Position numbers and translations under genes: made by a program | NCBI RefSeq assembly: GCF_009931435.1 | Contig: NZ_CP043415.1 | Length of the DNA stretch: 64,000 nucleotides | From: Escherichia coli | GTDB lineage: Bacteria; Pseudomonadota; Gammaproteobacteria; Enterobacterales; Enterobacteriaceae | Direction: 5' to 3' (one strand) | Shown: positions 25,385 through 62,682 of the stretch, piece after piece | Position numbering within the stretch: position 1 is the first letter of the stretch | Layout of the letters: the number at the start of each line of letters is the position of its first letter | The notes under the pieces: model-generated | What the model saw: only the letters and a program-made list of their open reading frames with translations | Database searches by the model: none | Told to the model about the DNA's origin: nothing

Positions 25385-26005
25385 CTCTCTCTGGTTTTCA
25401 GCCCCCATCATCTGTTGAGTTTCGGGAGCCGCGGTTTTGACGTTTTGCGGGGACCTGCCTTTTGTTCCCTCCGGTATTCACCATCACCTGTTTGAGAACC
25501 TTCGCCGCAAGGGGCATCACTGCCACGGCCGGAAACGACTGTCCGGGGGCAGACCGCAAAAGTTTTTGCCTGCTTTTGGGCAAAAACTTTTGCGGGATGT
25601 GCATTTCACCCCTGGACTGGCGGAGACGGTTGTGGCTGTCTTTGCCCCCGGCGACAGGGGCTTAAACAGGTGAATGGCACCGGACACAACAACGGGCAGG
25701 GACCCGCCGCAACGACGTGAAGCGCGGTTTGCGAAACGGAGTTGCCCCTTACATCCCGGCGGTCTTTTGCCGGGATGTAAGGAGCGCAGGCCACGGCGCG
25801 ACCGGAACGGTCGCTGCAAGCCCGGGGTTTTCACGCATCGGACCGTAGCGACAGCCCGAAACCGCGCCAGCGGGTTTGGCGGAGACTGACAGGTGCGCCA
25901 GCAGCTGCCTGTCGGAGTCGGGCCTGACGACCGGATGCCGCCAGGCAGCCGGGAGCCGAAGGTGCGCCCGGCAGACAGGACAACACTGCAGTAGTCAGAA
26001 TCAGA
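25385..26005 (-). repeat. Leading-region repeat copy A (Frpo/ssi-like structured element)
   Basis: Near-identical to 32760-33408 and related to 36112-36600; internal hairpins GCAAAAGTTTTTGCC..GGCAAAAACTTTTGC, CATCCCGGC..GCCGGGATG, GCGACCG..CGGTCGC. Confidence 0.7.
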
Positions 26006-26280
26006 GCAGGAAGAAAAAGAGAATAATCACAGGGAAGGTGATGTGATTTCTGACAGGCCATAACCAGAGAAGGCGGGGGAAAAGAACGGGCGCCGCAGGC
26101 GCACGTTCATCCCCGTTCCTGAAGGGAAACGACCTTCCTGAAGTCAGGTTGTTCATGCCCGTACAACATCAGCAAGGAGAAAGGGGCTACCGGCGAACCA
26201 GCAGCCCCTTTATAAAGGCGCTTCAGTAGTCAGACCAGCATCAGTCCTGAAAAGGCGGGCCTGCGCCCGCCTCCAGGTTG

Positions 26281-27923: not shown

Positions 27924-31844
<3,921 letters not shown>

Positions 31845-31906
31845 TAGTACCTCCCAAAACGGTAATAATGATTGTCTGCCGGACGTGTCCCCGTCCGGCA
31901 CCTCTC

Positions 31907-32759: not shown

Positions 32760-33408
32760 TGATGTTTTCAGCCCCCATCATCTTTTGAGTTTCGGGAGCC
32801 GCGGTTTTGACGTTTTGCGGGGACCTGCCTTTTGTTCCCTCCGGTATTCACCATCACCTTTTTGAGAACCTTCGCCGCAAGGGGCATCACTGCCACGGAC
32901 GGAAACGACTGTCCGGGGGCAGACCGCAAAAGTTTTTGCCTGCTTTTGGGCAAAAACTTTTGCGGGATGTGCATTTCACCCCTGGACTGGCGGAGACGGT
33001 TGTGGCTGTCTTTGCCCCCGGCGACAGGGGCTTAAACAGGTGAATGGCACCGGACAGAACAACGGGCAGGGACCCGCCGCAACGACGTGAAGCGCGGTTT
33101 GCGAAACGGCGTTGCCCCTTACATCCCGGCGGCCTTTTGCCGGGATGCCAGGAGCGCAGGCCACGGCGCGACAGAGGCGGCGCGACCGGAACGGTCGCTG
33201 CAAGCCCGGGGTTTTCACGCATCGGACCGTAGCGACAGCCCGAAACCGCGCCAGCGGGTTCGGCGGAGACTGGCAGGTGCGCCAGCAGCTGCCTGTCGGA
33301 GTCGGGCCTGACGACCGGATGCCGCCAGGCAGCCGGGAGCCGAAGGTGCGCCCGGCAGACAGGACAACACTGCAGTAGTCAGAATCAGAGCAGCAGGAAA
33401 AAGAAGAA
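32760..33408 (-). repeat. Leading-region repeat copy B (Frpo/ssi-like), immediately upstream of ssb
   Basis: Near-identical to copy A over ~600 bp, with the same hairpins. Confidence 0.7.
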
Positions 33409-35881: not shown

Positions 35882-36111
35882 AATTTAGCCTCTTATGACG
35901 TTAATTAATGAAACCGTAAAGACTGTTCGTGCAGTCTCTGCGGTGTGGATTAAGCAGGTCCCTGACCTGCTTTTTTCATATCTGCGTCTGACGTTCTCCG
36001 GTGTTTTCCTCCTTCTGTTCCTGCGTTCTCATTACCTGCCAGCCGGATGACTGACAGAACACATAAATGCGTATTGCCGGAGCCTGAAATAAATCCTGAT
36101 TTTTAAAGAAC

Positions 36112-36600
36112 ATCACCCGTTGAGTTTCGGGAGCCGCGGTTTTGACGTTTCGCGGGAACCTGCTGCTGTATTCCCTGTGGTATGAACTTCACCCGTTTGA
36201 GAACCTTCGCCGCAAGGGGCATCACTGCCACGGCCTGACGCACCTGTCCTGGGCAGAACGCAAAATTTTTTACCGGGTTTTGGGTAAAAAATTTTGTGGG
36301 CTGTTCATTTACCCTGGACAGTCAGTGCGGCAGGTTGTGGCTGTATGAGCCCCCGGCGACAGGGACTCATACGGGTGTGTGGCATCCGGCAGGCAATGAG
36401 CAGGGACCCGCCGCAATGACGGAGAGCGCGTGCGCGAAACGGCGTTGCGCCTCACATCCCGGCGGCCTTTTGCCGGGATGCCAGGAGCACAGGCCACGGC
36501 GCGACAAGGGTGGCGCGACCGTTCCGGTCGCTGCAAGCCCGGGGTTTTGCGGCGTCAGGGATGGAAGCCCGCCAGGGCGGAGACAGCTCCGCTGGCTCCG
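36112..36600 (-). repeat. Leading-region repeat copy C (diverged Frpo/ssi-like)
   Basis: Shares TTGAGTTTCGGGAGCCGCGGTTTTGACG, TTGAGAACCTTCGCCGCAAGGGGCATCACTGCCACGG and CCCGGCGGCCTTTTGCCGGGATGCCAGGAGC blocks with copies A and B. Confidence 0.65.
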
Positions 36601-37718: not shown

Positions 37719-38131
37719 GATGTTTTCCTCCGTTGTTCACATATTCCGCGACACCGGGCGGTGCCGTGCCTCCATAAAAGCCGGGCGATAAGGCGGGGAT
37801 GCACAGGGCGCAAGGGAAGCCGCAGCCTGACGCACACGGCTGACGGGAGTTGGAGGGTGAGACAGCGAAATCTGAGCGGGTGAACGACCGGAAAATCACG
37901 GCAGACGGGAAGGAGGGACCGGGTGACCGCAGCGGCGAAGCGTACCCTTGCATCCCTGCCAGCCCGGCTAAGATGGAGGCACGGCACAGCCCGCACACGA
38001 CACGGCGGCCACATAACTGAAAATCCACAAGGCCATGCCCCGCATGGCTGGGTAAAGCGGAGCCGCCGGCGACTTCCTTTGTGCTCTGTCCGGGGACCGG
38101 CAGGAAAAAGGCGGGGATTTCCCCGCCATCA

Positions 38132-40300: not shown

Positions 40301-40683
40301 ACAAAACGCCTTCTCTTACAGAGGGCACCGGGAGGGCACCCCTGTGGTGCCCGTTCCCCGCTGCCTGTGGGCTGTTCACCGCGTCCGGTAACGGGTCAGG
40401 CCGACCGTGGAATACCGCAGCCGTCGTCTGTTTGACGGCAAGGTTATGCCGCGAAAGCGGCTTGAAGGGCGTTCATCAGAAAAGGGCGACAGGCTGGCGT
40501 ACACTGTCACCGACGCCAGCCGGGAGCGGTAAAAGCGCCCGTCCCGTGCCCGCCGGACGCGGGACACTGACCACAGGCAGCGTTTATGCCGCGCCGCGTC
40601 AGCCGGCGCAGTAAAAAGAGGAGCATGGCGACATCCTTTACCGGAAAAGAAACGGGCAGTTGCCCGCCCGTCTCCGTCATACT

Positions 40684-41586
40684 TCATCCACCGTAATGCG
40701 CCACCTTGTCGACTATCCACGCAGGTCCGGTGACTTCCGGCAGCTCATCGTCATCTGTCGGGGAAGACCATTCCAGTTCCCCCCACAGCACATCAACAAG
40801 CTCTCCACGCTCATATCGCTGCCAGCCACAGAAATTGCAGCCCTGTTCGGCGTACCAGTGCTCCAGCGTGCAGCCGAAACGGCGGCTTAATTCTGCAACA
40901 ACGTCGCTTTCCGGCTGACACCACGGCGTGTCGAAATCCACCTGAATGAAGTTTTCCCCCTGACTGCTGATATTCAGGTCATACCCACAAGGCCACTTCA
41001 CGCCATACCGTTCTGTATACCAGTGATATGCAGAAGGAACACCGTTCAGAACACCACCGTTAAAGCCATTCACTTCAACATCCAGGCGGGTCGGCAGAAC
41101 CGTCAGCAGGTCAAACGGCATGGTTTTTTCCGGCACTACGTTGTCACACAGACGGTTCCACCACACCGATACATCCTCGTTACCCCAGATGTCACACCAG
41201 TCACCTCTTTTTGCGGTGAAATGCACAGTGATGGTTTCCCTGACATCATCCGGTAACCCTTCCCAGCGACGCTGTCCAGTACCGCTCTGCAGCCAGAGTT
41301 CATGCAGCATCAGGCAGTTTTGCTCATCCAGCAGTACACCGTTCTGCAGGTGTGTCAGCCAGCGGGTGAACGCGATATTTTCCGTCGATACAGCACCACG
41401 TCCGGCAGCCGTCACTCCGGGGCACTGCTCAGAGCGGATATTTTCAGTGATCTGCAGAAGTCCGGCACTTCCGGCCAGAAACAGCTGAATACCTTCATTT
41501 GTGGCGCGGCGATAAAACGGTGTGACTGCACCGCTGGCCCGTCGTTTAATCTCAGCAATCTGTGCCGGTTCACCAGAAAAATGCAT
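40684..41586 (-). CDS. Conserved leading-region protein of unknown function, 300 aa, Cys/Trp-rich
   Basis: ORF whose ATG (41584-41586) lies a few nt from the group II intron 3' end; no assigned function. Confidence 0.55.
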   Translation of the reverse strand: MHFSGEPAQIAEIKRRASGAVTPFYRRATNEGIQLFLAGSAGLLQITENIRSEQCPGVTAAGRGAVSTENIAFTRWLTHLQNGVLLDEQNCLMLHELWLQSGTGQRRWEGLPDDVRETITVHFTAKRGDWCDIWGNEDVSVWWNRLCDNVVPEKTMPFDLLTVLPTRLDVEVNGFNGGVLNGVPSAYHWYTERYGVKWPCGYDLNISSQGENFIQVDFDTPWCQPESDVVAELSRRFGCTLEHWYAEQGCNFCGWQRYERGELVDVLWGELEWSSPTDDDELPEVTGPAWIVDKVAHYGG

Positions 41587-41594
41587 ACGATCGG

Positions 41595-43995
41595 GTAGCA
41601 GTGATGCATTACTGCATCACCGCCCCCTAAGAACCGTACGTGCCAGTTTCCCGGCATACGGCTCAAGCCTTTCTAAGCCCACTCTCATGAGCCGGTTTCA
41701 CTACATGTATACCTTTCGCATGAACAAGTGTGTGACACATCGGATGCAGCATAATCAAATTGGAGAGGCAGTTGCTCCCTCCATCGACTCGCCGTATGAT
41801 GTGATGAACCTGCCACTGGGAATCAGATGTAATCCTCTCATCACATATGGGGCATCGGCCCCGCTGCTCAAACCAGATTTGAATGAGCTTTTTCCGTCCT
41901 TGCAGTTTGTGCCGCATTTTGTCTGCACAACGCTCCTCAAAGTACATCTCCCATTGAGGATCGAACGGATTAGCTGCAATTTTAATCGGTTTAAACCGGT
42001 TGATAGGCGTATCGATTGCTTTCCTCAGATTTGCATACTGAGGCTTACCGTTGGCAAGGAGTTCTCCGGTAGCCGTGGAGAAAGACCAGTTTCGGGCACC
42101 TTGTTGATGGAAATATCTTTTCCGAATCCACTTCTTTCCCTTATTGGGATGACGCCGAACAGCCCAACGCCATAAAGCCAGCCAGATCTCATTGTCAACT
42201 TTGTTAAATGCGACCTTGGCCACAATGTGTTGATGGTAAGCCGCCCACCCTTTGATCATTGGGTTCAGCATGCGGATCAACGTAAGCTGATCCATAGCTT
42301 TGTTGCCTTTGATTACAGCGCGTATTTTCTTTAAAAAGGAACTGACATTGGCTTTAGAGGGTTTGATCAGCATCTTACCGCCATATTTGCGAATGTTCTG
42401 TCCAAGAAAATCAAATCCTTCCTCGATATGTGTGATTTTCGTCTTTTCCGGAGAAAGCATTAATCCTCTTTCAGCCATAAACCGCCTGACGACGGGTAAT
42501 ACCTGAGACTCAAGAAGTTCTTTTGACTCTCCAGTGATAATAAAATCATCAGCATATCTCACATAGTTAACTTTCGGGTTAACCAATCGTCCCTTGACTG
42601 TTCTCTTTTTAAACTCCGAAGCAAGAAGCGCCTCCAGTCCATCCAGAGCAATGTTAGCCAGTACAGGAGAAATTATTCCCCCCTGAGGAGTTCCTGAATT
42701 TACAGGGAATAACTGCCCCTTTTCCCTGTAACCCGCTTTAAGCCACTTTGTCAGGATTTGTCTGTCTGTTGAGGTGTTATCGATTAGCCATTGATGAGAT
42801 ATATTGTCAAAGCATCCCCGTATATCCCCCTCAAGCACCCATTCAGCGGATGTTTTCTGCGCAAGAACACAGAAGCACTGTGCTATCGCATCTGCAGTAG
42901 ACCTTCCAGTCCGAAAGCCGAAGGATCTCTGGTCAGCAGTGACTTCAGCAACGGGCTCAAGAGCCAGCAAATACAACGCCTGCATCGCCCGATCCTTCAT
43001 AGTGGGTATCCCAAGGGGACGAGACTTCCCATTTGACTTAGGTATATAAACCCGCTTAAGTGGCTGTGGTTTGTAACCACGCCGTTTCAGCAGGTTAATA
43101 GCAAGAAATTTAACCTCCGGGGAAGACCATGTCTGACCATCAACCCCAGGAGTACGTTTCCCGCTATTCTCTGTAACTCGTCTGACAGCAACTGCTCTGC
43201 CACTAAACGAGTGAGTCAGTATCCATTGCAAGGATTTGACCTTGCCATGTTTACCTTCTCGTGTTGCCTTTACGATACGCGCTTGCAGTCTCCGCACTTC
43301 CCGATAGCACTGACGCCAGTTGATACTGTGCCAGGAGTCACCGTTAAGTAAGGACGCACCTTTACAGGTTGTAGCCTGCTCAGTCATCTGCTTTTCCTTT
43401 CTGGAAGATTACTCAAACTCTCTCGTAATGAAAGACCCAGTGGAAGTCTGCCCGCTTTCGCGTAGGGTAATGTTGCCGGGCTCAACCCTTATCCGGTCCA
43501 TTACAGACTGGCATTCGCTTTTTCCACCTTCTTTTACCCGCACCGCCAACAGTATCCCTTGCGGTTAACCTGCCTCACGAGGCAGCGATACGGGCTTACC
43601 ATGTTCCACCTGAATAACAACAGTAGGTTAGACTCTGCTCACAACACCGGTGGTTTATTGTCCGTGTACCCCTAGCAAACAGAGGAGTAACCAACCACAT
43701 ACCTTTTGGTTCAAGCCTGTCAGCATCTTTGGCTTGTTCTGGTTAACGACGCTTCAGCAGTTCACATATGTTAGTCATGCTACCGAGCCTAGACCTCCTC
43801 CGCCTGATGCTGGCAGATTACATGTAACCTCACGGTTTCATGCGATCCGAAGATCCGGTTTCATTGTCCTGACAGCTTCACACCCCACCGTTACCAGTGA
43901 CGCATGTGTCAGTAGGCTACTGATGACGGAACATCAGGTTCCCTGACGGAATCGAACTCCGCTGGAACAATTATTCAGGCGACTTCATGTCGCAC
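41595..43995 (-). mobile_element. Group II intron (~2.4 kb) with intron-encoded RT-maturase-HNH protein
   Basis: Minus-strand 5' end GTGCGACATG at 43995; domain V GAGCCGTATGCCGGGAAACTGGCACGTACGGTTC at 41664-41631 overlapping the ORF stop; domain VI-like hairpin follows. 3' boundary approximate. Confidence 0.8.
41663..43387 (-). CDS. Group II intron-encoded protein (reverse transcriptase / maturase / HNH endonuclease)
   Basis: 574 aa; RT motif YVRYADDFII, maturase X region, C-terminal HNH block (CPICDERI…HHIIRRVDGGSNCLSNLIMLHPMCHTLVH). Confidence 0.92.
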   Translation of the reverse strand: MTEQATTCKGASLLNGDSWHSINWRQCYREVRRLQARIVKATREGKHGKVKSLQWILTHSFSGRAVAVRRVTENSGKRTPGVDGQTWSSPEVKFLAINLLKRRGYKPQPLKRVYIPKSNGKSRPLGIPTMKDRAMQALYLLALEPVAEVTADQRSFGFRTGRSTADAIAQCFCVLAQKTSAEWVLEGDIRGCFDNISHQWLIDNTSTDRQILTKWLKAGYREKGQLFPVNSGTPQGGIISPVLANIALDGLEALLASEFKKRTVKGRLVNPKVNYVRYADDFIITGESKELLESQVLPVVRRFMAERGLMLSPEKTKITHIEEGFDFLGQNIRKYGGKMLIKPSKANVSSFLKKIRAVIKGNKAMDQLTLIRMLNPMIKGWAAYHQHIVAKVAFNKVDNEIWLALWRWAVRRHPNKGKKWIRKRYFHQQGARNWSFSTATGELLANGKPQYANLRKAIDTPINRFKPIKIAANPFDPQWEMYFEERCADKMRHKLQGRKKLIQIWFEQRGRCPICDERITSDSQWQVHHIIRRVDGGSNCLSNLIMLHPMCHTLVHAKGIHVVKPAHESGLRKA

Positions 43996-44409
43996 ATTTG
44001 AGCACCAGTTTGGCATGGGAATTCTCCTCTCACATGCGGCCTCCACCAGGCCGTGCCGCACCTGTAACCGGGCGACCGCATACGAATGCAGGTGCGGCCC
44101 CGAAGCCGCAGCGCGTGGAGGAGGAACGACGAAACGTGACCGGGTGAGGAGGCCGGCGACAGCGACACACTTGCATCGGATGCAGCCCGGTTAACGTGCC
44201 GGCACGGCCTGGGTAACCAGGTATTTTGTCCACAGAACCGTGCACAAAATGCTGTGGATAAGCTGGACACAGCCGTCCACAGCAGGCATACAGCCACACC
44301 CTCAGAGAATTGAGCGTTTTTTAGTCACAATAATGACATTTGACTGTGTGTGGATTCAGTTATTAGAATACTGTATATGCATACAGCAAAAGAAAAGGGA
44401 GATGAGAAC

Positions 44410-44658: not shown

Positions 44659-45074
44659 GTACCGTTTATCACCGTCCGGCTGACCCTTCAGGCAATGACA
44701 GTTACGTGCGACCGTTGTTTGCCGATCGTTGCCAGGCCGGTTTTCCTTCGCCTGCCACTGATTATGCTGAGCAGGAACTGGATCTGAACAGCTATTGCAT
44801 CAGCAGACCTGCAGCCACCTTCTTTCTGCGCGCCAGCGGTGAATCGATGAACCAGGCTGGCGTGCAGAATGGTGATCTGCTGGTAGTGGACAGGGCCGAA
44901 AAACCACAACACGGGGACATCGTTATCGCTGAGATCGACGGGGAGTTCACCGTCAAACGACTGCTGTTGCGCCCACGCCCGGCACTGGAGCCGGTTTCAG
45001 ACAGCCCGGAGTTCCGCACACTGTATCCGGAAAACATCTGTATTTTTGGTGTTGTCACTCACGTTGTTCATTGA
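44655..45074 (+). CDS. impA: ImpA (UmuD-like), C-terminus altered by a deletion
   Basis: 139 aa with LexA-like cleavage-site region (RASGESM) and catalytic domain; ends …GVVTHVVH, shorter than expected for UmuD-family proteins. Confidence 0.85.
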   Translation: MSTVYHRPADPSGNDSYVRPLFADRCQAGFPSPATDYAEQELDLNSYCISRPAATFFLRASGESMNQAGVQNGDLLVVDRAEKPQHGDIVIAEIDGEFTVKRLLLRPRPALEPVSDSPEFRTLYPENICIFGVVTHVVH

Positions 45075-46031
45075 TTTGCGGGGGGTGAACCGTTGCATCT
45101 CTCCGGAGGTTTTTGGTCATCAGCTCAGGGAACAAGTAAAGAGCTGGACAGGACTCGCCATGGGGGTGGGCATTGCACCTACAAAAACGCTGGCCAAAAG
45201 TGCACAGTGGGCAACAAAGCAATGGCCACAGTTTTCCGGTGTGGTCGCGCTGACGGCAGAAAACCGTAATCGGACCTTCAAGTTACTGGGGCAGCAGCCT
45301 GTTGGTGAAGTCTGGGGAGTAGGACGCAGACTGACGGAAAAGCTGAATGCGCAGGGTATTAACACAGCGCAGCAGCTGGCGCAGGCTAACACGGCATTCA
45401 TCCGGAAAAACTTCAGCGTCATTCTTGAGCATACAGTACGCGAACTCAACGGCGAGTCCTGCATATCTCCGGAAGAAGCCCCACCGGCAAAACAGCAGAT
45501 TGTCTGTAGCCGCAGTTTTGGTGAACGAATCACAGACAAAGATGCCATGCACCAGGCTGTTGTTCAGTATGCAGAGCGGGCCGCAGAGAAACTACGTGGG
45601 GAGCGTCAGTATTGCCGGCAGGTGGCGACATTTATACGAACGTCACCCTTTGCAGTGAAAGCCCCTGTTACAGCAATTCCGCTGTGGAAAAGCTTCCATT
45701 GCCTACACAGGACAGCCGGGACATTATTGCCGCAGCATGCAGAGCGTTAAACCATGTCTGGCGTGAAGGGTACCGCTATATGAAGGCAGGAGTCATGCTG
45801 GCTGATTTCACACCATCGGGTATAGCGCAGCCGGGATTATTTGATGAAATCCAGCCCCATAAAAACAGCGAAAAGTTAATGAAAACACTCGATGAACTGA
45901 ACCAGTCGGGAAAAGGGAAAGTGTGGTTTGCGGGGCGAGGAACCGCCCCTGAATGGCAAATGAAACGGGAAATGTTGAGTCAGTGTTATACAACTAAATG
46001 GCGAGATATTCCCCTGGCCAGGCTGGGTTAG
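45070..46031 (+). pseudogene. impB: impB (UmuC-like Y-family polymerase), N-terminally deleted and frameshifted
   Basis: Translation aligns to UmuC only from about residue 100 (…GVGIAPTKTLAK…); reading frame shifts near 45650-45665, with the C-terminal part continuing in another frame (45612-46031). Confidence 0.8.
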
Positions 46032-50593: not shown

Positions 50594-50920
50594 ATGACTA
50601 AAAATACTCGTTTTTCCCCCGAAGTCCGTCAACGCGCAGTTCGTATGGTTCTGGAAAGTCAGGGCGAATATGACTCACAGTGGGCGGCAATTTGTTCCAT
50701 TGCCCCAAAGATTGGCTGTACGCCGGAGACTCTGCGTGTCTGGGTTCGCCAGCATGAGCGGGATACCGGGGGCGGTGATGGTGGGCTCACCAGCGCTGAA
50801 CGTCAGCGTCTGAAAGAGCTGGAACGTGAAAATCGTGAACTGCGCTGCAGTAACGATATCCTTCGCCAGGCTTCCGCTTATTTTGCGAAGGCGGAGTTCG
50901 ACCGCCTCTGGAAAAAATGA
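50594..50920 (+). CDS. IS3-family transposase OrfA
   Basis: 108 aa, HTH and leucine zipper, [41 protein letters not shown]…. Confidence 0.9.
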
Positions 50921-51807
50921 TGCCACTGCTGGATAAGCTGCGTGAGCAGTACGGGGTCAGACCGGTATGCAGCGAACTGCATATTGCCCCGTCAACGTAT
51001 TACCATTGTCAGCAACAGCGACATCATCCGGATAAACGCAGTGCCCGTGCGCAGCACGATGACTGGCTGAAGAAAGAGATACAGCGCGTATACGATGAAA
51101 ATCACCAGGTATACGGTGTGCGTAAAGTCTGGCGTCAGTTGTTACGGGAAGGTATCAGAGTGGCCAGATGCACTGTGGCACGTCTCATGGCAGTTATGGG
51201 ACTTGCCGGTGTTCTCCGGGGTAAAAAGGTCCGCACTACCGTCAGCCGGAAAGCCGTTGCCGCATGCGACCGCGTAAACCGTCAGTTCGTGGCAGAACGT
51301 CCAGACCAGTTGTGGGTGGCTGATTTTACCTGGGTAAGCACATGGCAGGGCTTCGTTTATGTGGCGTTCATCATTGATGTGTTCGCCGGATACATCGTGG
51401 GATGGCAGGTCTCATCATCCATGGAAACAACATTCGTGCTGGATGCACTGGAGCAGGCGTTGTGGGCCCGTCGGCCGTCCGGCACAATCCATCACAGTGA
51501 TAAAGGTTCTCAGTATGTATCGCTGGCCTACACGCAGCGGCTTAAGGAAGCCGGATTACTGGCATCAACAGGGAGTACTGGCGACTCGTATGACAACGCG
51601 ATGGCGGAGAGCATCAATGGTCTTTACAAAGCGGAGGTAATACACCGTAAGAGCTGGAAAAACCGGACAGAAGTGGAACTGGCCACACTAACGTGGGTGG
51701 ACTGGTATAACAATCGACGATTGCTGGGAAGGCTGGGCCATACTCCTCCGGCAGAAGCAGAAAAAGCTTATTATGCTTCCATCGGAAACAATGATCTGGC
51801 AGCCTGA
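50917..51807 (+). CDS. IS3-family transposase OrfB (DDE integrase domain)
   Basis: 296 aa, overlaps the orfA 3' end. Confidence 0.9.
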
Positions 51808-51978
51808 GTTCACAGATAAAACACTCTCCAGGAAACCCGGGGCGGTTCATTCAGTGGTGAACAGTCCATTCCGGAGACGGAATATCTTGTTAAGGCTGTA
51901 TATTATACTGGCTGTAAACAACATGGCCACCAAGGACCATGTTGTTTACAGCATACCCTTGTTACAAAAGAATCCCCG

Positions 51979-61642: not shown

Positions 61643-62682
61643 CTGAAAGAGCTGGAGCGAGAAAATCGTGAACTGCGCCGCAGTAACGATATCCTTCGCC
61701 AGGCTTCCGCTTATTTTGCGAAGGCGGAGTTCGACCGCCTCTGGAAAAAATGATGCCACTGCTGGATAAGCTGCGTGAGCAGTACGGGGTCAGACCGGTA
61801 TGCAGCGAACTGCATATTGCCCCGTCAACGTATTACCATTGTCAGCAACAGCGACATCATCCGGATAAACGCAGTGCCCGTGCGCAGCACGATGACTGGC
61901 TGAAGAAAGAGATACAGCGCGTATACGATGAAAATCACCAGGTATACGGTGTGCGTAAAGTCTGGCGTCAGTTGTTACGGGAAGGTATCAGAGTGGCCAG
62001 ATGCACTGTGGCACGTCTCATGGCAGTTATGGGACTTGCCGGTGTTCTCCGGGGTAAAAAGGTCCGCACTACCGTCAGCCGGAAAGCCGTTGCCGCATGC
62101 GACCGCGTAAACCGTCAGTTCGTGGCAGAACGTCCAGACCAGTTGTGGGTGGCTGATTTTACCTGGGTAAGCACATGGCAGGGCTTCGTTTATGTGGCGT
62201 TCATCATTGATGTGTTCGCCGGATACATCGTGGGATGGCAGGTCTCATCATCCATGGAAACAACATTCGTGCTGGATGCACTGGAGCAGGCGTTGTGGGC
62301 CCGTCGGCCGTCCGGCACAATCCATCACAGTGATAAAGGTTCTCAGTATGTATCGCTGGCCTACACGCAGCGGCTTAAGGAAGCCGGATTACTGGCATCA
62401 ACAGGAAGTACAGGCGACTCGTATGACAACGCGATGGCGGAGAGCATCAATGGTCTTTACAAAGCGGAGGTAATACACCGTAAGAGCTGGAAAAACCGTG
62501 CAGAAGTGGAACTGGCCACACTAACGTGGGTGGACTGGTATAACAATCGACGATTGCTGGAAAGGCTGGGCCATACTCCTCCGGCAGAAGCAGAAAAAGC
62601 TTATTATGCTTCCATCGGAAATAATGATCTGGCAGCCTGAGTTCACAGATAAAATACTCTCCAGGAAACCCGGGGCGGTTCA
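61643..62682 (+). mobile_element. IS629/IS1203-like element, 5'-truncated copy (about IS positions 271-1310)
   Basis: Near-identical to the complete copy from the orfA 3' part through the right inverted repeat; left inverted repeat and orfA 5' end absent. Confidence 0.85.
61750..62640 (+). CDS. IS3-family transposase OrfB (second copy)
   Basis: 296 aa, differs from copy 1 at about 3 residues. Confidence 0.85.

Follow-up and report, generated by a model that had tools for sequence, protein, structure and literature searches.

A full-length group II intron identical to the pO157 copy of EcI5 in the yubA gene of a predicted conjugative Escherichia coli plasmid

Introduction

The 64,000-nucleotide stretch of Escherichia coli plasmid DNA analysed in this study (contig NZ_CP043415.1; hereafter the window) contains a complete group II intron of 2406 nt on its minus strand, at 41590-43995. 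Judged by its sequence, the intron is almost certainly EcI5 (E.c.I5), intact and full length, located in sense orientation at its native pO157 site within yubA. The element is already known. Its cataloguing dates back to the pO157 sequence, and it has served as a targetron since 2009. Its presence at the yubA site has been described previously, and pO157 is its natural source; EcI5 combines a IIB1 ribozyme with a reverse transcriptase (RT) of the CL1 lineage (PMC8643678). The plasmid studied here is of IncFIA/FIB/FIC type, is predicted to be conjugative, and has a full tra region; it shares 99.86% identity with NZ_CP065971. A preliminary description of the window had recognized the intron at the head of the leading region and had known of no described intron at such a position. 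In this study, we define the boundaries, host gene, and distribution of the intron and consider its likely effects on the genes around it.

Results

Identity, boundaries, and ribozyme domains

The intron and the pO157 Sakai copy (NC_002128) are identical at 2406 of 2406 bases, and the position is the native pO157 site, so the supposed absence of a described intron there does not hold. The exons contain all the published critical target bases, C-18, C-17, A-15, A-14, and T+5 (published set: PMC8643678). The element was assigned to EcI5 because of this complete identity together with the presence of every critical target base. The coordinates of the intron and of the features around it are listed in Table 1.

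The ends fit the boundaries of a mobile bacterial group II intron (5' GUGYG and 3' AY), and comparison with empty sites shows an exact insertion. The GTGCG 5' end noted earlier is present, and the intron terminates with ...CCCGAU at 41590. The 3' end had been put at 41595; alignment with intron-less alleles moves the true 3' splice site to 41590.

Two Rfam searches, which correspond to the covariance-model check proposed in the preliminary description, gave matches above the gathering scores. RF02012 recovered the conserved domain I core (133.4 bits against a gathering score of 34; E 2e-29), and RF00029 recovered domains V/VI at 41666-41590 (66.2 bits against 40; E 3e-12). Domains V and VI fold strongly together (z = -7.5), and the bulged branch-point A of domain VI is intron nt 2400, 7 nt from the 3' end. 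Domain V begins within the stop codon of the intron-encoded protein (IEP), TGA at 41665-41663, and both this overlap and the domain VI-like hairpin had been read correctly from the sequence. The segment of domains II/III (nt 386-610) gave a minimum free energy (MFE) z of only -0.97 against shuffles, a fragment MFE being an invalid test of group II tertiary architecture; the EBS2 region folded alone by MFE gave nothing above shuffles. The six-domain structure of the identical sequence has been published (PMC8643678, Fig. 1A).

Table 1. Positions of the intron, its parts, and neighbouring elements in the window.
Feature	Position	Strand	Basis or detail
EcI5 intron	41590..43995	-	pO157 identity; ends set by intron-less alleles; Rfam matches
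5' splice-site consensus GUGCG	43991..43995	-	Direct sequence reading (DNA GTGCG at 43995-43991)
Domain I core (intron nt 58-204)	43792..43938	-	RF02012 group-II-D1D4-7, full-length model match
Candidate EBS2a U (nt 250/251)	43745-43746	-	2-3 nt upstream of EBS2; fits published EBS2a
EBS2 (intron nt 253-257, ACCAG)	43739..43743	-	Complementary to CUGGU, exon -13 to -9, at all four natural sites
EBS1 (intron nt 316-320, GUUUG)	43676..43680	-	In loop of hairpin nt 308-328; pairs with exon -5 to -1
IEP, 574 aa, RT (YADD present) + maturase/X + HNH endonuclease, encoded in domain IV	41663..43387	-	Pfam, NCBIfam
Domain V	41631..41664	-	34-nt hairpin, GAAA loop, 2-nt bulge; RF00029 alignment and fold
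Domain VI	41593..41627	-	Bulged branch-point A at 41596; fold and RF00029 alignment
yubA exon 1, ATG + 6 codons (MPNWCSN)	43996..44016	-	927-nt intron-less CDSs start at same ATG; contains IBS2a (A, 44009), IBS2 (44004-44008), IBS1 (43996-44000)
yubA exon 2 (codon 8 to stop)	40684..41589	-	IBS3 = C at 41589
M.EcoGIX/YubD-type single-strand DNA methylase, 227 aa	39617..40300	-	NF010253, 495 bits
167-nt hairpin, candidate single-strand promoter/initiation element, outside intron	44046..44212	.	Fold and conservation
Frpo-like repeats	25394-26020, 32764-33404, 36099-36548

Intron-encoded protein

The protein encoded in domain IV contains the RT, maturase, and DNA-binding/endonuclease regions of a mobile intron, with Pfam matches to RVT_N, RVT_1 (3e-45), GIIM (9e-24), and HNH (2e-9). 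It scored 371.8 bits against NCBIfam TIGR04416 (cut-off 300), and among solved structures the Th.e.I3 maturase-RT 6ME0 is closest to it (E 1.7e-200, residues 15-558). An RT gene could also belong to a retron or a DRT-type defence system, and weak matches of this kind were obtained. However, they fall far under the family cut-offs (retron St85 RT, 54 bits against 235; Drt2, 36 against 390; Drt3a, 35 against 200), whereas TIGR04416 is above its own. Ribozyme domains also lie on both sides of the ORF, and empty sites show the insertion to be precise; hence, a retron or DRT identity was rejected and is given practically no chance. The Rfam domain I and V/VI matches, the IEP domains, and the precise insertion thus bear out the earlier reading of a complete RT-maturase-HNH group II intron.

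Insertion within the coding sequence of yubA

The intron separates codon 7 of yubA from codon 8, with 21 nt of coding sequence ahead of it. Joining exons 1 and 2 in silico (junction ...TCAAAT|CGTATG) restores an open, in-frame sequence of 308 aa, a DUF1281/Api92-like protein with Pfam matches to DUF1281 and DUF1281_C and to the Api92 structure (PDB 2IJR; E 2e-46, from residue 3). The uninterrupted site was recovered from intron-less relatives, as the preliminary description had proposed: with the intron deleted, the sequence equals the intron-less alleles of CP027135 and CP024975 base for base, both annotated as 927-nt DUF1281/YubA genes. Alignment with these alleles places the true start of yubA at ATG 44016-44014, downstream of an AGGAG Shine-Dalgarno sequence.

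The preliminary description had the intron abutting the start codon of a 300-aa ORF and interrupting either the 5' UTR or the true 5' end of the gene. The second option is the correct one, and the ATG at 41586 is not a start but codon 9 (Met9) of yubA. A location in 5' UTR or intergenic DNA, with the 300-aa ORF as the whole gene, agrees with GenBank/PGAP, which annotate a 903-nt DUF1281 CDS in intron-bearing plasmids. Against this, the intron-less CDS is 927 nt long and starts 24 nt further upstream behind the AGGAG sequence, the two exons are in frame, and the Api92 alignment begins at residue 3 of the 308-aa protein. The ATG at 41586 has no Shine-Dalgarno sequence, and 4 nt separate it from the domain VI hairpin. 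The 5'-UTR location was rejected on the 927-nt alleles, the in-frame exons, and the Api92 alignment, and we regard it as extremely unlikely. In intron-bearing plasmids, automatic annotation overlooks exon 1 and leaves yubA truncated at 300 aa.

Exon-binding pairings

EBS coordinates were derived from our own pairing analysis and Monachello 2021 (PMC8643678). Four natural sites were compared: the two yubA alleles (window and pO157), prophage gpU, and an amino-acid permease gene. The EBS1 and EBS2 pairings hold at all four, in agreement with the EBS/IBS check suggested earlier. IBS1 is complementary to GUUUG at four of four sites through Watson-Crick or G-U pairs, the exon -5 to -1 bases being CAAAU in the window, CGAAU in pO157, CAAAU in gpU, and UAAAC in the permease gene. 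At position -4, the window has A (U-A with EBS1) and pO157 has G (U-G). IBS2 (CTGGT), A-14, C+1, and T+5 are invariant. For EBS3/IBS3, only the C+1 invariance was observed, and the EBS3 nucleotide was not located in the intron by the pairing analysis. In the published scheme, A258 is directly 3' of EBS2 and EBS2a(U) is two nt upstream of EBS2 (PMC8643678).

Distribution and natural mobility

The uninterrupted yubA junction occurs in 4256 PLSDB plasmids and the exon 1-intron junction in 181, so that EcI5 occupies about 4% of roughly 4400 plasmid sites. The valid occupancy count is this junction-specific one; a count of 153 plasmids is unproven for the flanks, as the intron by itself is enough to pass the 80% coverage threshold. 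Between the window and pO157, the intron has 0 differences in 2406 nt and yubA exon 2 has 60 in 900 (6.6%). An identical intron in yubA alleles 6.6% apart indicates that EcI5 moves between plasmids in nature. Ectopic chromosomal copies are present in O157:H7 (prophage gpU and the amino-acid permease gene). On this sequence comparison, EcI5 appears as a naturally mobile element, found in diverged yubA alleles and on conjugative and non-conjugative backbones, with occasional chromosomal hops.

In Shigella boydii pINV and in ETEC plasmids, the yubA site holds truncated EcI5, consisting of the first 574-909 nt only, which would fit a reading of the window element as a decayed, non-functional remnant that merely disrupts yubA. 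The window copy, however, is full length, its ORF is open with intact YADD and HNH motifs, its domains V and VI are intact, and it is identical to the copy with about 88% retrohoming (PMC8643678). The relic reading was rejected on these grounds and is very unlikely.

Leading-region context

The intron shares its strand with the leading-region genes, and yubA heads the co-oriented string, as described before: yubA, yubC, the M.EcoGIX-type methylase, klcA, ssb, psiB, oriT, and traM, read toward oriT. In pESBL, Hp8 (927 nt) is followed by M.EcoGIX (684 nt), the same order and sizes as in the window (PMC4288162). The 167-nt hairpin sits 30 nt upstream of the yubA ATG and has an ssDNA fold z of -5.4 to -6.2. 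It is at least 99% identical in 4055 of 4350 PLSDB plasmids and shows a single substitution in its 167 nt among plasmids whose yubA is 3-6.6% apart. In a covariation test, one pair changes (U-G to C-G), the hairpin being essentially invariant. Blocks of sequence in its 3' arm recur in the klcA-upstream hairpin, including the hexamers TTGCAT ... TAA(C/G)(G/A)T. A second strong hairpin lies between yubA and the methylase, at about 40359-40583 (z = -6.45).

This arrangement suggests a further possibility, namely that the intron acts as more than a passenger: lying behind a single-strand hairpin promoter on the transferred strand, it would be induced on conjugative entry, would gate or delay the yubA-M.EcoGIX anti-restriction unit, and would produce a burst of retrohoming-competent ribonucleoprotein in every new host. 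By the gene order and the strand logic of PMC9849209, yubA is read from the transferred strand in the same way as ssb and psiB. The strongly folding, nearly invariant hairpin is close to the ATG and has the blocks in common with the klcA-upstream hairpin; Wen et al. 2025 report a klcA-upstream hairpin as an experimentally mapped ssDNA promoter in pESBL, conserved in F. The same report has the M.EcoGIX operon induced early in pESBL and F. A simple sigma-70 scan of the minus strand upstream of yubA detected no double-strand promoter, the scan being too crude to establish absence. On the other side, the 'class 3' ssDNA promoter that Wen et al. 2025 give as 5' of M.EcoGIX is not assigned in their main text, or in related papers, to one of two places, upstream of Hp8/yubA or directly upstream of M.EcoGIX; both regions fold strongly, and according to Wen et al. 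2025 not all leading genes are induced. The hairpin at about 40359-40583 could drive the methylase independently, and the hexamers are weak with a 15-nt spacer. Expression does not need conjugative entry, since EcI5 reached O157:H7 chromosomal sites although pO157 is non-conjugative. With occupancy of yubA sites at only about 4%, there is no indication that the intron is selected for. On this evidence, induction of the intron on entry is unlikely.

Discussion

Proposed working of the intron

From its identity to the tested element, splicing and retrohoming of the window copy would be expected. The intron would be transcribed as part of the yubA transcript. The 574-aa protein would be translated from domain IV, bind the intron RNA, and promote branching at the bulged A of domain VI, and splicing would release a lariat ribonucleoprotein and ligated yubA mRNA encoding the 308-aa protein. 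The lariat ribonucleoprotein may then retrohome into intron-less yubA alleles. Targets would be recognized by the EBS1/IBS1, EBS2/IBS2, EBS2a/IBS2a, and EBS3/IBS3 pairings and by protein contacts at -18, -17, -15, and +5. The HNH domain would cut the bottom strand, priming reverse transcription; such a cut is established for the class. For the identical sequence, splicing in E. coli has been shown, target recognition by EBS-IBS pairings and protein contacts is experimental, and retrohoming was about 88% efficient in plasmid assays (PMC8643678).

Probable effect on expression

The unspliced RNA encodes only a 13-aa peptide. YubA production needs splicing, because an in-frame TGA at intron nt 19-21 ends the unspliced reading. 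For EcI5, 17% splicing and lowered mRNA and reporter levels have been reported (PMC6003770), and the intron probably reduces YubA production. The claim that everything downstream would depend on splicing or read-through was overstated, as only the translation of YubA needs splicing; the downstream cistrons have their own start sites and would need transcription through the intron, not splicing. The downstream string is split into units, each preceded by its own strongly folding single-strand element: the hairpins upstream of klcA and between yubA and the methylase, and the Frpo-like repeats (Table 1). Separate ssDNA promoters have been reported for leading-region operons in F and pESBL (PMC9849209; Wen et al. 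2025, NAR 53:gkaf1299). The effect past yubA is limited to 2.4 kb of transcriptional read-through within at most one operon.

Comparison with known introns

The window and pO157 copies of EcI5 share the 2406-nt sequence, host gene, insertion point, orientation, IIB1/CL1 class, and endonuclease-positive (En-plus) 574-aa IEP. They differ in backbone, pO157 being tra-deleted and non-mobilizable, whereas the window plasmid is predicted to be conjugative with full tra; the yubA alleles differ by 6.6%. The Th.e.I3/TeI4h-type introns of Thermosynechococcus (cryo-EM 6ME0/6MEC) belong to the same IIB1 subgroup and CL1 RT lineage and have the EBS2a-IBS2a pairing in common with EcI5 (PMC8643678), but are thermophilic and differ in host, sequence, and target sites. 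Like EcI5, Ll.LtrB is a mobile intron in a conjugative-plasmid gene (the relaxase gene ltrB of pRS01, Lactococcus lactis). Its host protein needs splicing, its host mRNA is lowered (PMC6003770), and conjugation spreads the intron. In contrast to EcI5, Ll.LtrB is of the IIA/ML type and occupies a gene that transfer cannot do without, whereas no transfer role is known for yubA; experiments have demonstrated the regulatory coupling for Ll.LtrB alone.

The IIB1 introns of the EcKTE56.groEL type have about 70% ribozyme and 56% RT identity to EcI5, and both lie near gene ends. Members of that start/stop-codon-associated clade have an additional subdomain Ia and insert precisely at start or stop codons; EcI5 does not have this extra insertion and is stated to be outside the clade, and the window intron lies 21 nt inside the ORF. 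A 2343-bp group II intron of pHN7A8 (FII-33 backbone) likewise interrupts a small F-like backbone ORF with intron-less sister lineages, but differs in length and in host ORF (a 77-aa protein). In experimental evolution, a group II intron homed between co-resident IncF/IncI plasmids within 15 days (PNAS-2023); it resembles EcI5 as a group II intron on F-like plasmids, the likeness being drawn at the group II level alone.

Possible implications for plasmid entry

The EcI5 literature consulted for the native site (Monachello 2021, Enyeart 2014, Qu 2018) describes it only as the natural insertion site in pO157. In the present analysis, this site is the first gene of the F/IncI leading region, beside the M.EcoGIX anti-restriction methylase and just 3' of a near-invariant hairpin. 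It is doubtful that the intron and its RT are transcribed from ssDNA within the first minutes after entry, coupling a burst of retrohoming to plasmid arrival. If they were, the retrohoming targets would be resident intron-less F/I plasmids or ectopic chromosomal sites. About 2.4 kb of extra transcription would then precede the M.EcoGIX methylase in a single-strand interval of only 1-3 minutes, and the intron would impose a measurable cost on plasmid establishment. If the hairpin is an ssDNA promoter, the locus would offer a simple test system for a retroelement that exploits or burdens early entry expression.

Identity of the element

The element on the minus strand within yubA is a group II intron. 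Covariance models for domain I and for domains V and VI (DV/DVI) both scored above their gathering scores, and the GTGCG 5' end, the domain V overlapping the ORF stop and the domain VI-like hairpin read in the preliminary description were all recovered. In the fold of the terminal 79 nt, domain V (34 nt, capped by a GAAA loop) overlaps the TGA stop of the protein that the intron encodes (IEP), and domain VI, 3' of it, has a single bulged A lying 7 nt from the intron 3' end (fold z = -7.5). The IEP scored 371.8 against the NCBIfam curated cut-off of 300 for group II RT/maturases, and its nearest solved structure was the Th.e.I3 maturase-RT (6ME0; E 1.7e-200). Retron and DRT identities for this RT were rejected, as those NCBIfam models scored far under their own cut-offs.

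Full-length relatives were sought by megablast against plasmids; the matches included the O157:H7 virulence plasmid pO157 Sakai (NC_002128), and direct alignment of the two introns gave identity at 2406/2406 bases. EcI5 is a well-characterised intron in commercial use as a targetron. It belongs to subgroup IIB1 with a CL1-lineage RT, its natural home is pO157, and its target site was deduced from the natural pO157 insertion (PMC8643678). The target bases reported as critical, C-18, C-17, A-15, A-14 and T+5 (PMC8643678), are present in the exons flanking the window intron (5/5). Because of these bases and the match to pO157, the window intron is the already known EcI5 at its native homing site; the preliminary description, which knew of no intron reported at this position, is corrected on that point. 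The accessible EcI5 literature gives the native site only as the natural pO157 insertion, never as a leading-region gene, and in the literature on group II introns and the leading region we found no paper tying EcI5 to a leading-region gene.

Features of the window and their positions
Feature	Position	Strand	Remarks
EcI5	41590-43995	minus	2406 nt; ends placed from intron-less alleles
Intron 5' end, GTGCG	starts 43995	minus	read from sequence
Group II domain I	43938-43792	minus	Rfam RF02012, full-length model match, 133.4 bits (gathering score 34)
DV/DVI	41666-41590	minus	Rfam RF00029, 66.2 bits (gathering score 40)
Bulged A of domain VI	41596		
IEP ORF	43387-41663	minus	574 aa; RVT_N, RVT_1, GIIM, HNH domains
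Frpo/ssi-like direct repeat	25394-26020		leading region
Frpo/ssi-like direct repeat	32764-33404		abuts ssb start
Frpo/ssi-like direct repeat	36099-36548		leading region
klcA-upstream hairpin	37917-37985		
yubA-methylase spacer	40301-40700		
Spacer hairpin	~40359-40583		
yubA-upstream hairpin	44046-44212		167 nt
LexA box, perfect	44370-44385		CTGTATGCATATACAG
umuC	45046-46031		~958 nt
IS21-family element	28709-30658		1.95 kb
IstA	28795-29817		340 aa
IstB	29814-30596		260 aa
ParB-like gene fragments	30606-31901, 27924-28742		
IS3-family segments	50810-51849, 61643-62682		direct orientation
ALIL frameshift pseudoknots	50875-50991, 61708-61824		one in each IS3-family segment

Insertion site within yubA

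On the minus strand, the sequence 5' of the intron reads AGGAGAATTCCC ATG CCA AAC TGG TGC TCA AAT before the intron GTGCG, and the intron end ...CCCGAT is followed by CGT ATG CAT TTT.... Joining of 43996 to 41589 in silico gave an open 308-aa frame (MPNWCSNRMHFSGEP...). The joined sequence is present exactly in the intron-less plasmids CP027135 and CP024975, whose annotation gives a 927-nt DUF1281/'YubA' gene there, and the 129-nt exon junction was uninterrupted in 4256 PLSDB plasmids. Since intron-less alleles carry the joined sequence, the boundaries are placed at 41590 and 43995, the insertion point falls after codon 7 of the yubA coding sequence, and the ATG at 41586 encodes yubA residue Met9. 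In the preliminary description the 3' end had been set at 41595, 5 nt inside the intron, and that ATG had been taken as the start of a 300-aa ORF; of the two locations proposed there, the 5' UTR is rejected and the true 5' end of the gene upheld.

The predicted spliced YubA has DUF1281 and DUF1281_C domains and matches the Api92 structure 2IJR, starting at residue 3. YubA production requires splicing, because the unspliced frame from exon 1 stops at a TGA at intron nt 19-21 (a predicted peptide of just 13 aa) and a Shine-Dalgarno sequence is absent upstream of Met9. In intron-bearing plasmids, GenBank/PGAP annotation begins yubA at Met9 and gives a 300-aa protein, leaving the 7-codon exon 1 unannotated; this is a systematic artefact. 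The pO157 copy also precedes a truncated 903-nt 'hypothetical protein'. EcI5 in its homing site reduces host mRNA and reporter protein, with ~17% splicing in E. coli (PMC6003770); on these data, YubA expression is likely lowered.

Target-site pairing and natural mobility

A few O157:H7 chromosomes also carry EcI5, at two ectopic sites: antisense in the prophage tail-terminator gene gpU (CP017249, CP038372; 601-3006 of the CP017249 locus, L004), and sense in an amino-acid permease gene adjoining ebgC (CP028693; 601-3006 of its locus, L005). Both copies (CP017249, CP028693) are 100% identical to EcI5. Because the gpU copy lies antisense, its removal from the gpU transcript by splicing is impossible. 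Two yubA alleles, gpU and the permease gene thus provided four independent targets for a comparison of pairing.

Exon sequences flanking EcI5 at four natural sites
Site	5' exon	3' exon
Window yubA	CCAAACTGGTGCTCAAAT	CGTAT
pO157 / pINV yubA	...CTCGAAT	CGTAT
Prophage gpU	CCATACTGGTGATCAAAT	CTGAT
Amino-acid permease	ACCTACTGGTTCGTAAAC	CTGTT

A-14, CTGGT (-13 to -9), C+1 and T+5 were unchanged at 4/4 sites. Intron nt 253-257 (ACCAG), complementary to this CTGGT, coincide with the EBS2 position of Monachello et al. (PMC8643678), with A258 directly 3'. Intron nt 316-320 (GUUUG), which lie in the loop of a hairpin (nt 308-328), pair with -5 to -1 at 4/4 sites through Watson-Crick or G-U pairs. The EBS/IBS pairing, whose absence the preliminary description had named as refuting the intron, was found at these four natural sites.

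Comparison of the window with pO157 shows 0/2406 differences in the intron against 60/900 (6.6%) in the neighbouring yubA exon 2; ~160 intron differences would be expected if the intron had diverged as far as yubA. Because of this disparity, the diverged yubA alleles appear to have gained EcI5 recently, by retrohoming or, possibly, by gene conversion. Among PLSDB plasmids, 181 have the junction of yubA exon 1 with the intron and 153 have at least 80% of the intron; with the exon 1 region in ~4440, intron occupancy is ~4%. Plasmid hosts include E. coli, Shigella and Salmonella, with predicted conjugative and non-mobilizable types. A near-full copy occurs in 127/5426 complete E. coli genomes, and the same yubA site holds truncated remnants in other records.

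Gene context and downstream expression

NZ_CP065971 (IncFIA/FIB/FIC, typed conjugative) matches the window at 99.86% identity. The minus-strand order is parM/stbB, divergent dinI-umuD-(umuC), yubA::EcI5, yubC, methylase, yubE-G, klcA, ssb, parB-like, psiB, hok/sok, oriT and traM; yubA is, as initially described, the distal first of the co-oriented leading genes. Following the strand reasoning of PMC9849209, its template, like that of ssb and psiB, is the transferred strand (window plus strand). Two genes past yubA, the 227-aa methylase is of the M.EcoGIX/YubD type, and pESBL has the same arrangement, Hp8 (927 nt) then M.EcoGIX (684 nt) (PMC4288162).

The leading gene string is more than one transcription unit, because it contains three Frpo/ssi-like repeats (79-96% identity among themselves) and large hairpins 5' of klcA and between yubA and the methylase, and because separate ssDNA promoters are documented for these operons in F and pESBL (PMC9849209; Wen et al. 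2025). Only YubA therefore needs splicing, and at most the yubA-to-yubG unit relies on transcription through the intron; the earlier proposal that everything downstream depends on splicing or read-through was overstated.

Other features were observed in the window. An IS21-family (IS100-like) element, missing from NZ_CP065971, cuts the ParB-like gene between ssb and psiB and is probably polar on early psiB expression. Downstream of dinI-like/umuD, umuC has two overlapping frames (the intact CP027135 gene is 1275 nt) and appears to be a pseudogene. The layout of the two IS3-family segments, 99% identical, is composite-transposon-like: between them lie the aerobactin cluster iucABCD-iutA and a gene for an MFS transporter.

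Candidate single-strand promoter upstream of yubA

The hairpin lying 30 nt 5' of the yubA ATG folds as ssDNA far better than shuffled sequences (z = -5.4, transferred strand). Across plasmids that diverge by 3-6.6% in yubA, and by up to 46% farther upstream, its 167 nt carry a single substitution. Its identity reaches 99% or more in 4055/4350 PLSDB plasmids, and its 3' arm has sequence blocks in common with the klcA-upstream hairpin. We regard the hairpin as a candidate for a single-strand promoter or an initiation site. The accessible text of Wen et al. 2025 places a 'class 3' ssDNA promoter '5' of M.EcoGIX', which fits a position upstream of either Hp8/yubA or the methylase. The second large ssDNA hairpin, in the yubA-methylase spacer (z = -6.45), is as good a candidate for this promoter; annotation places the small ORF yubC in the spacer, and this ORF may be spurious. 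That the yubA-upstream hairpin is the class 3 promoter, with EcI5 expressed from ssDNA right after transfer, we consider rather unlikely. The single-strand window in F is reported as roughly 72-162 s. If the yubA-upstream hairpin were the promoter, the path to the methylase would be 2.4 kb longer through EcI5.
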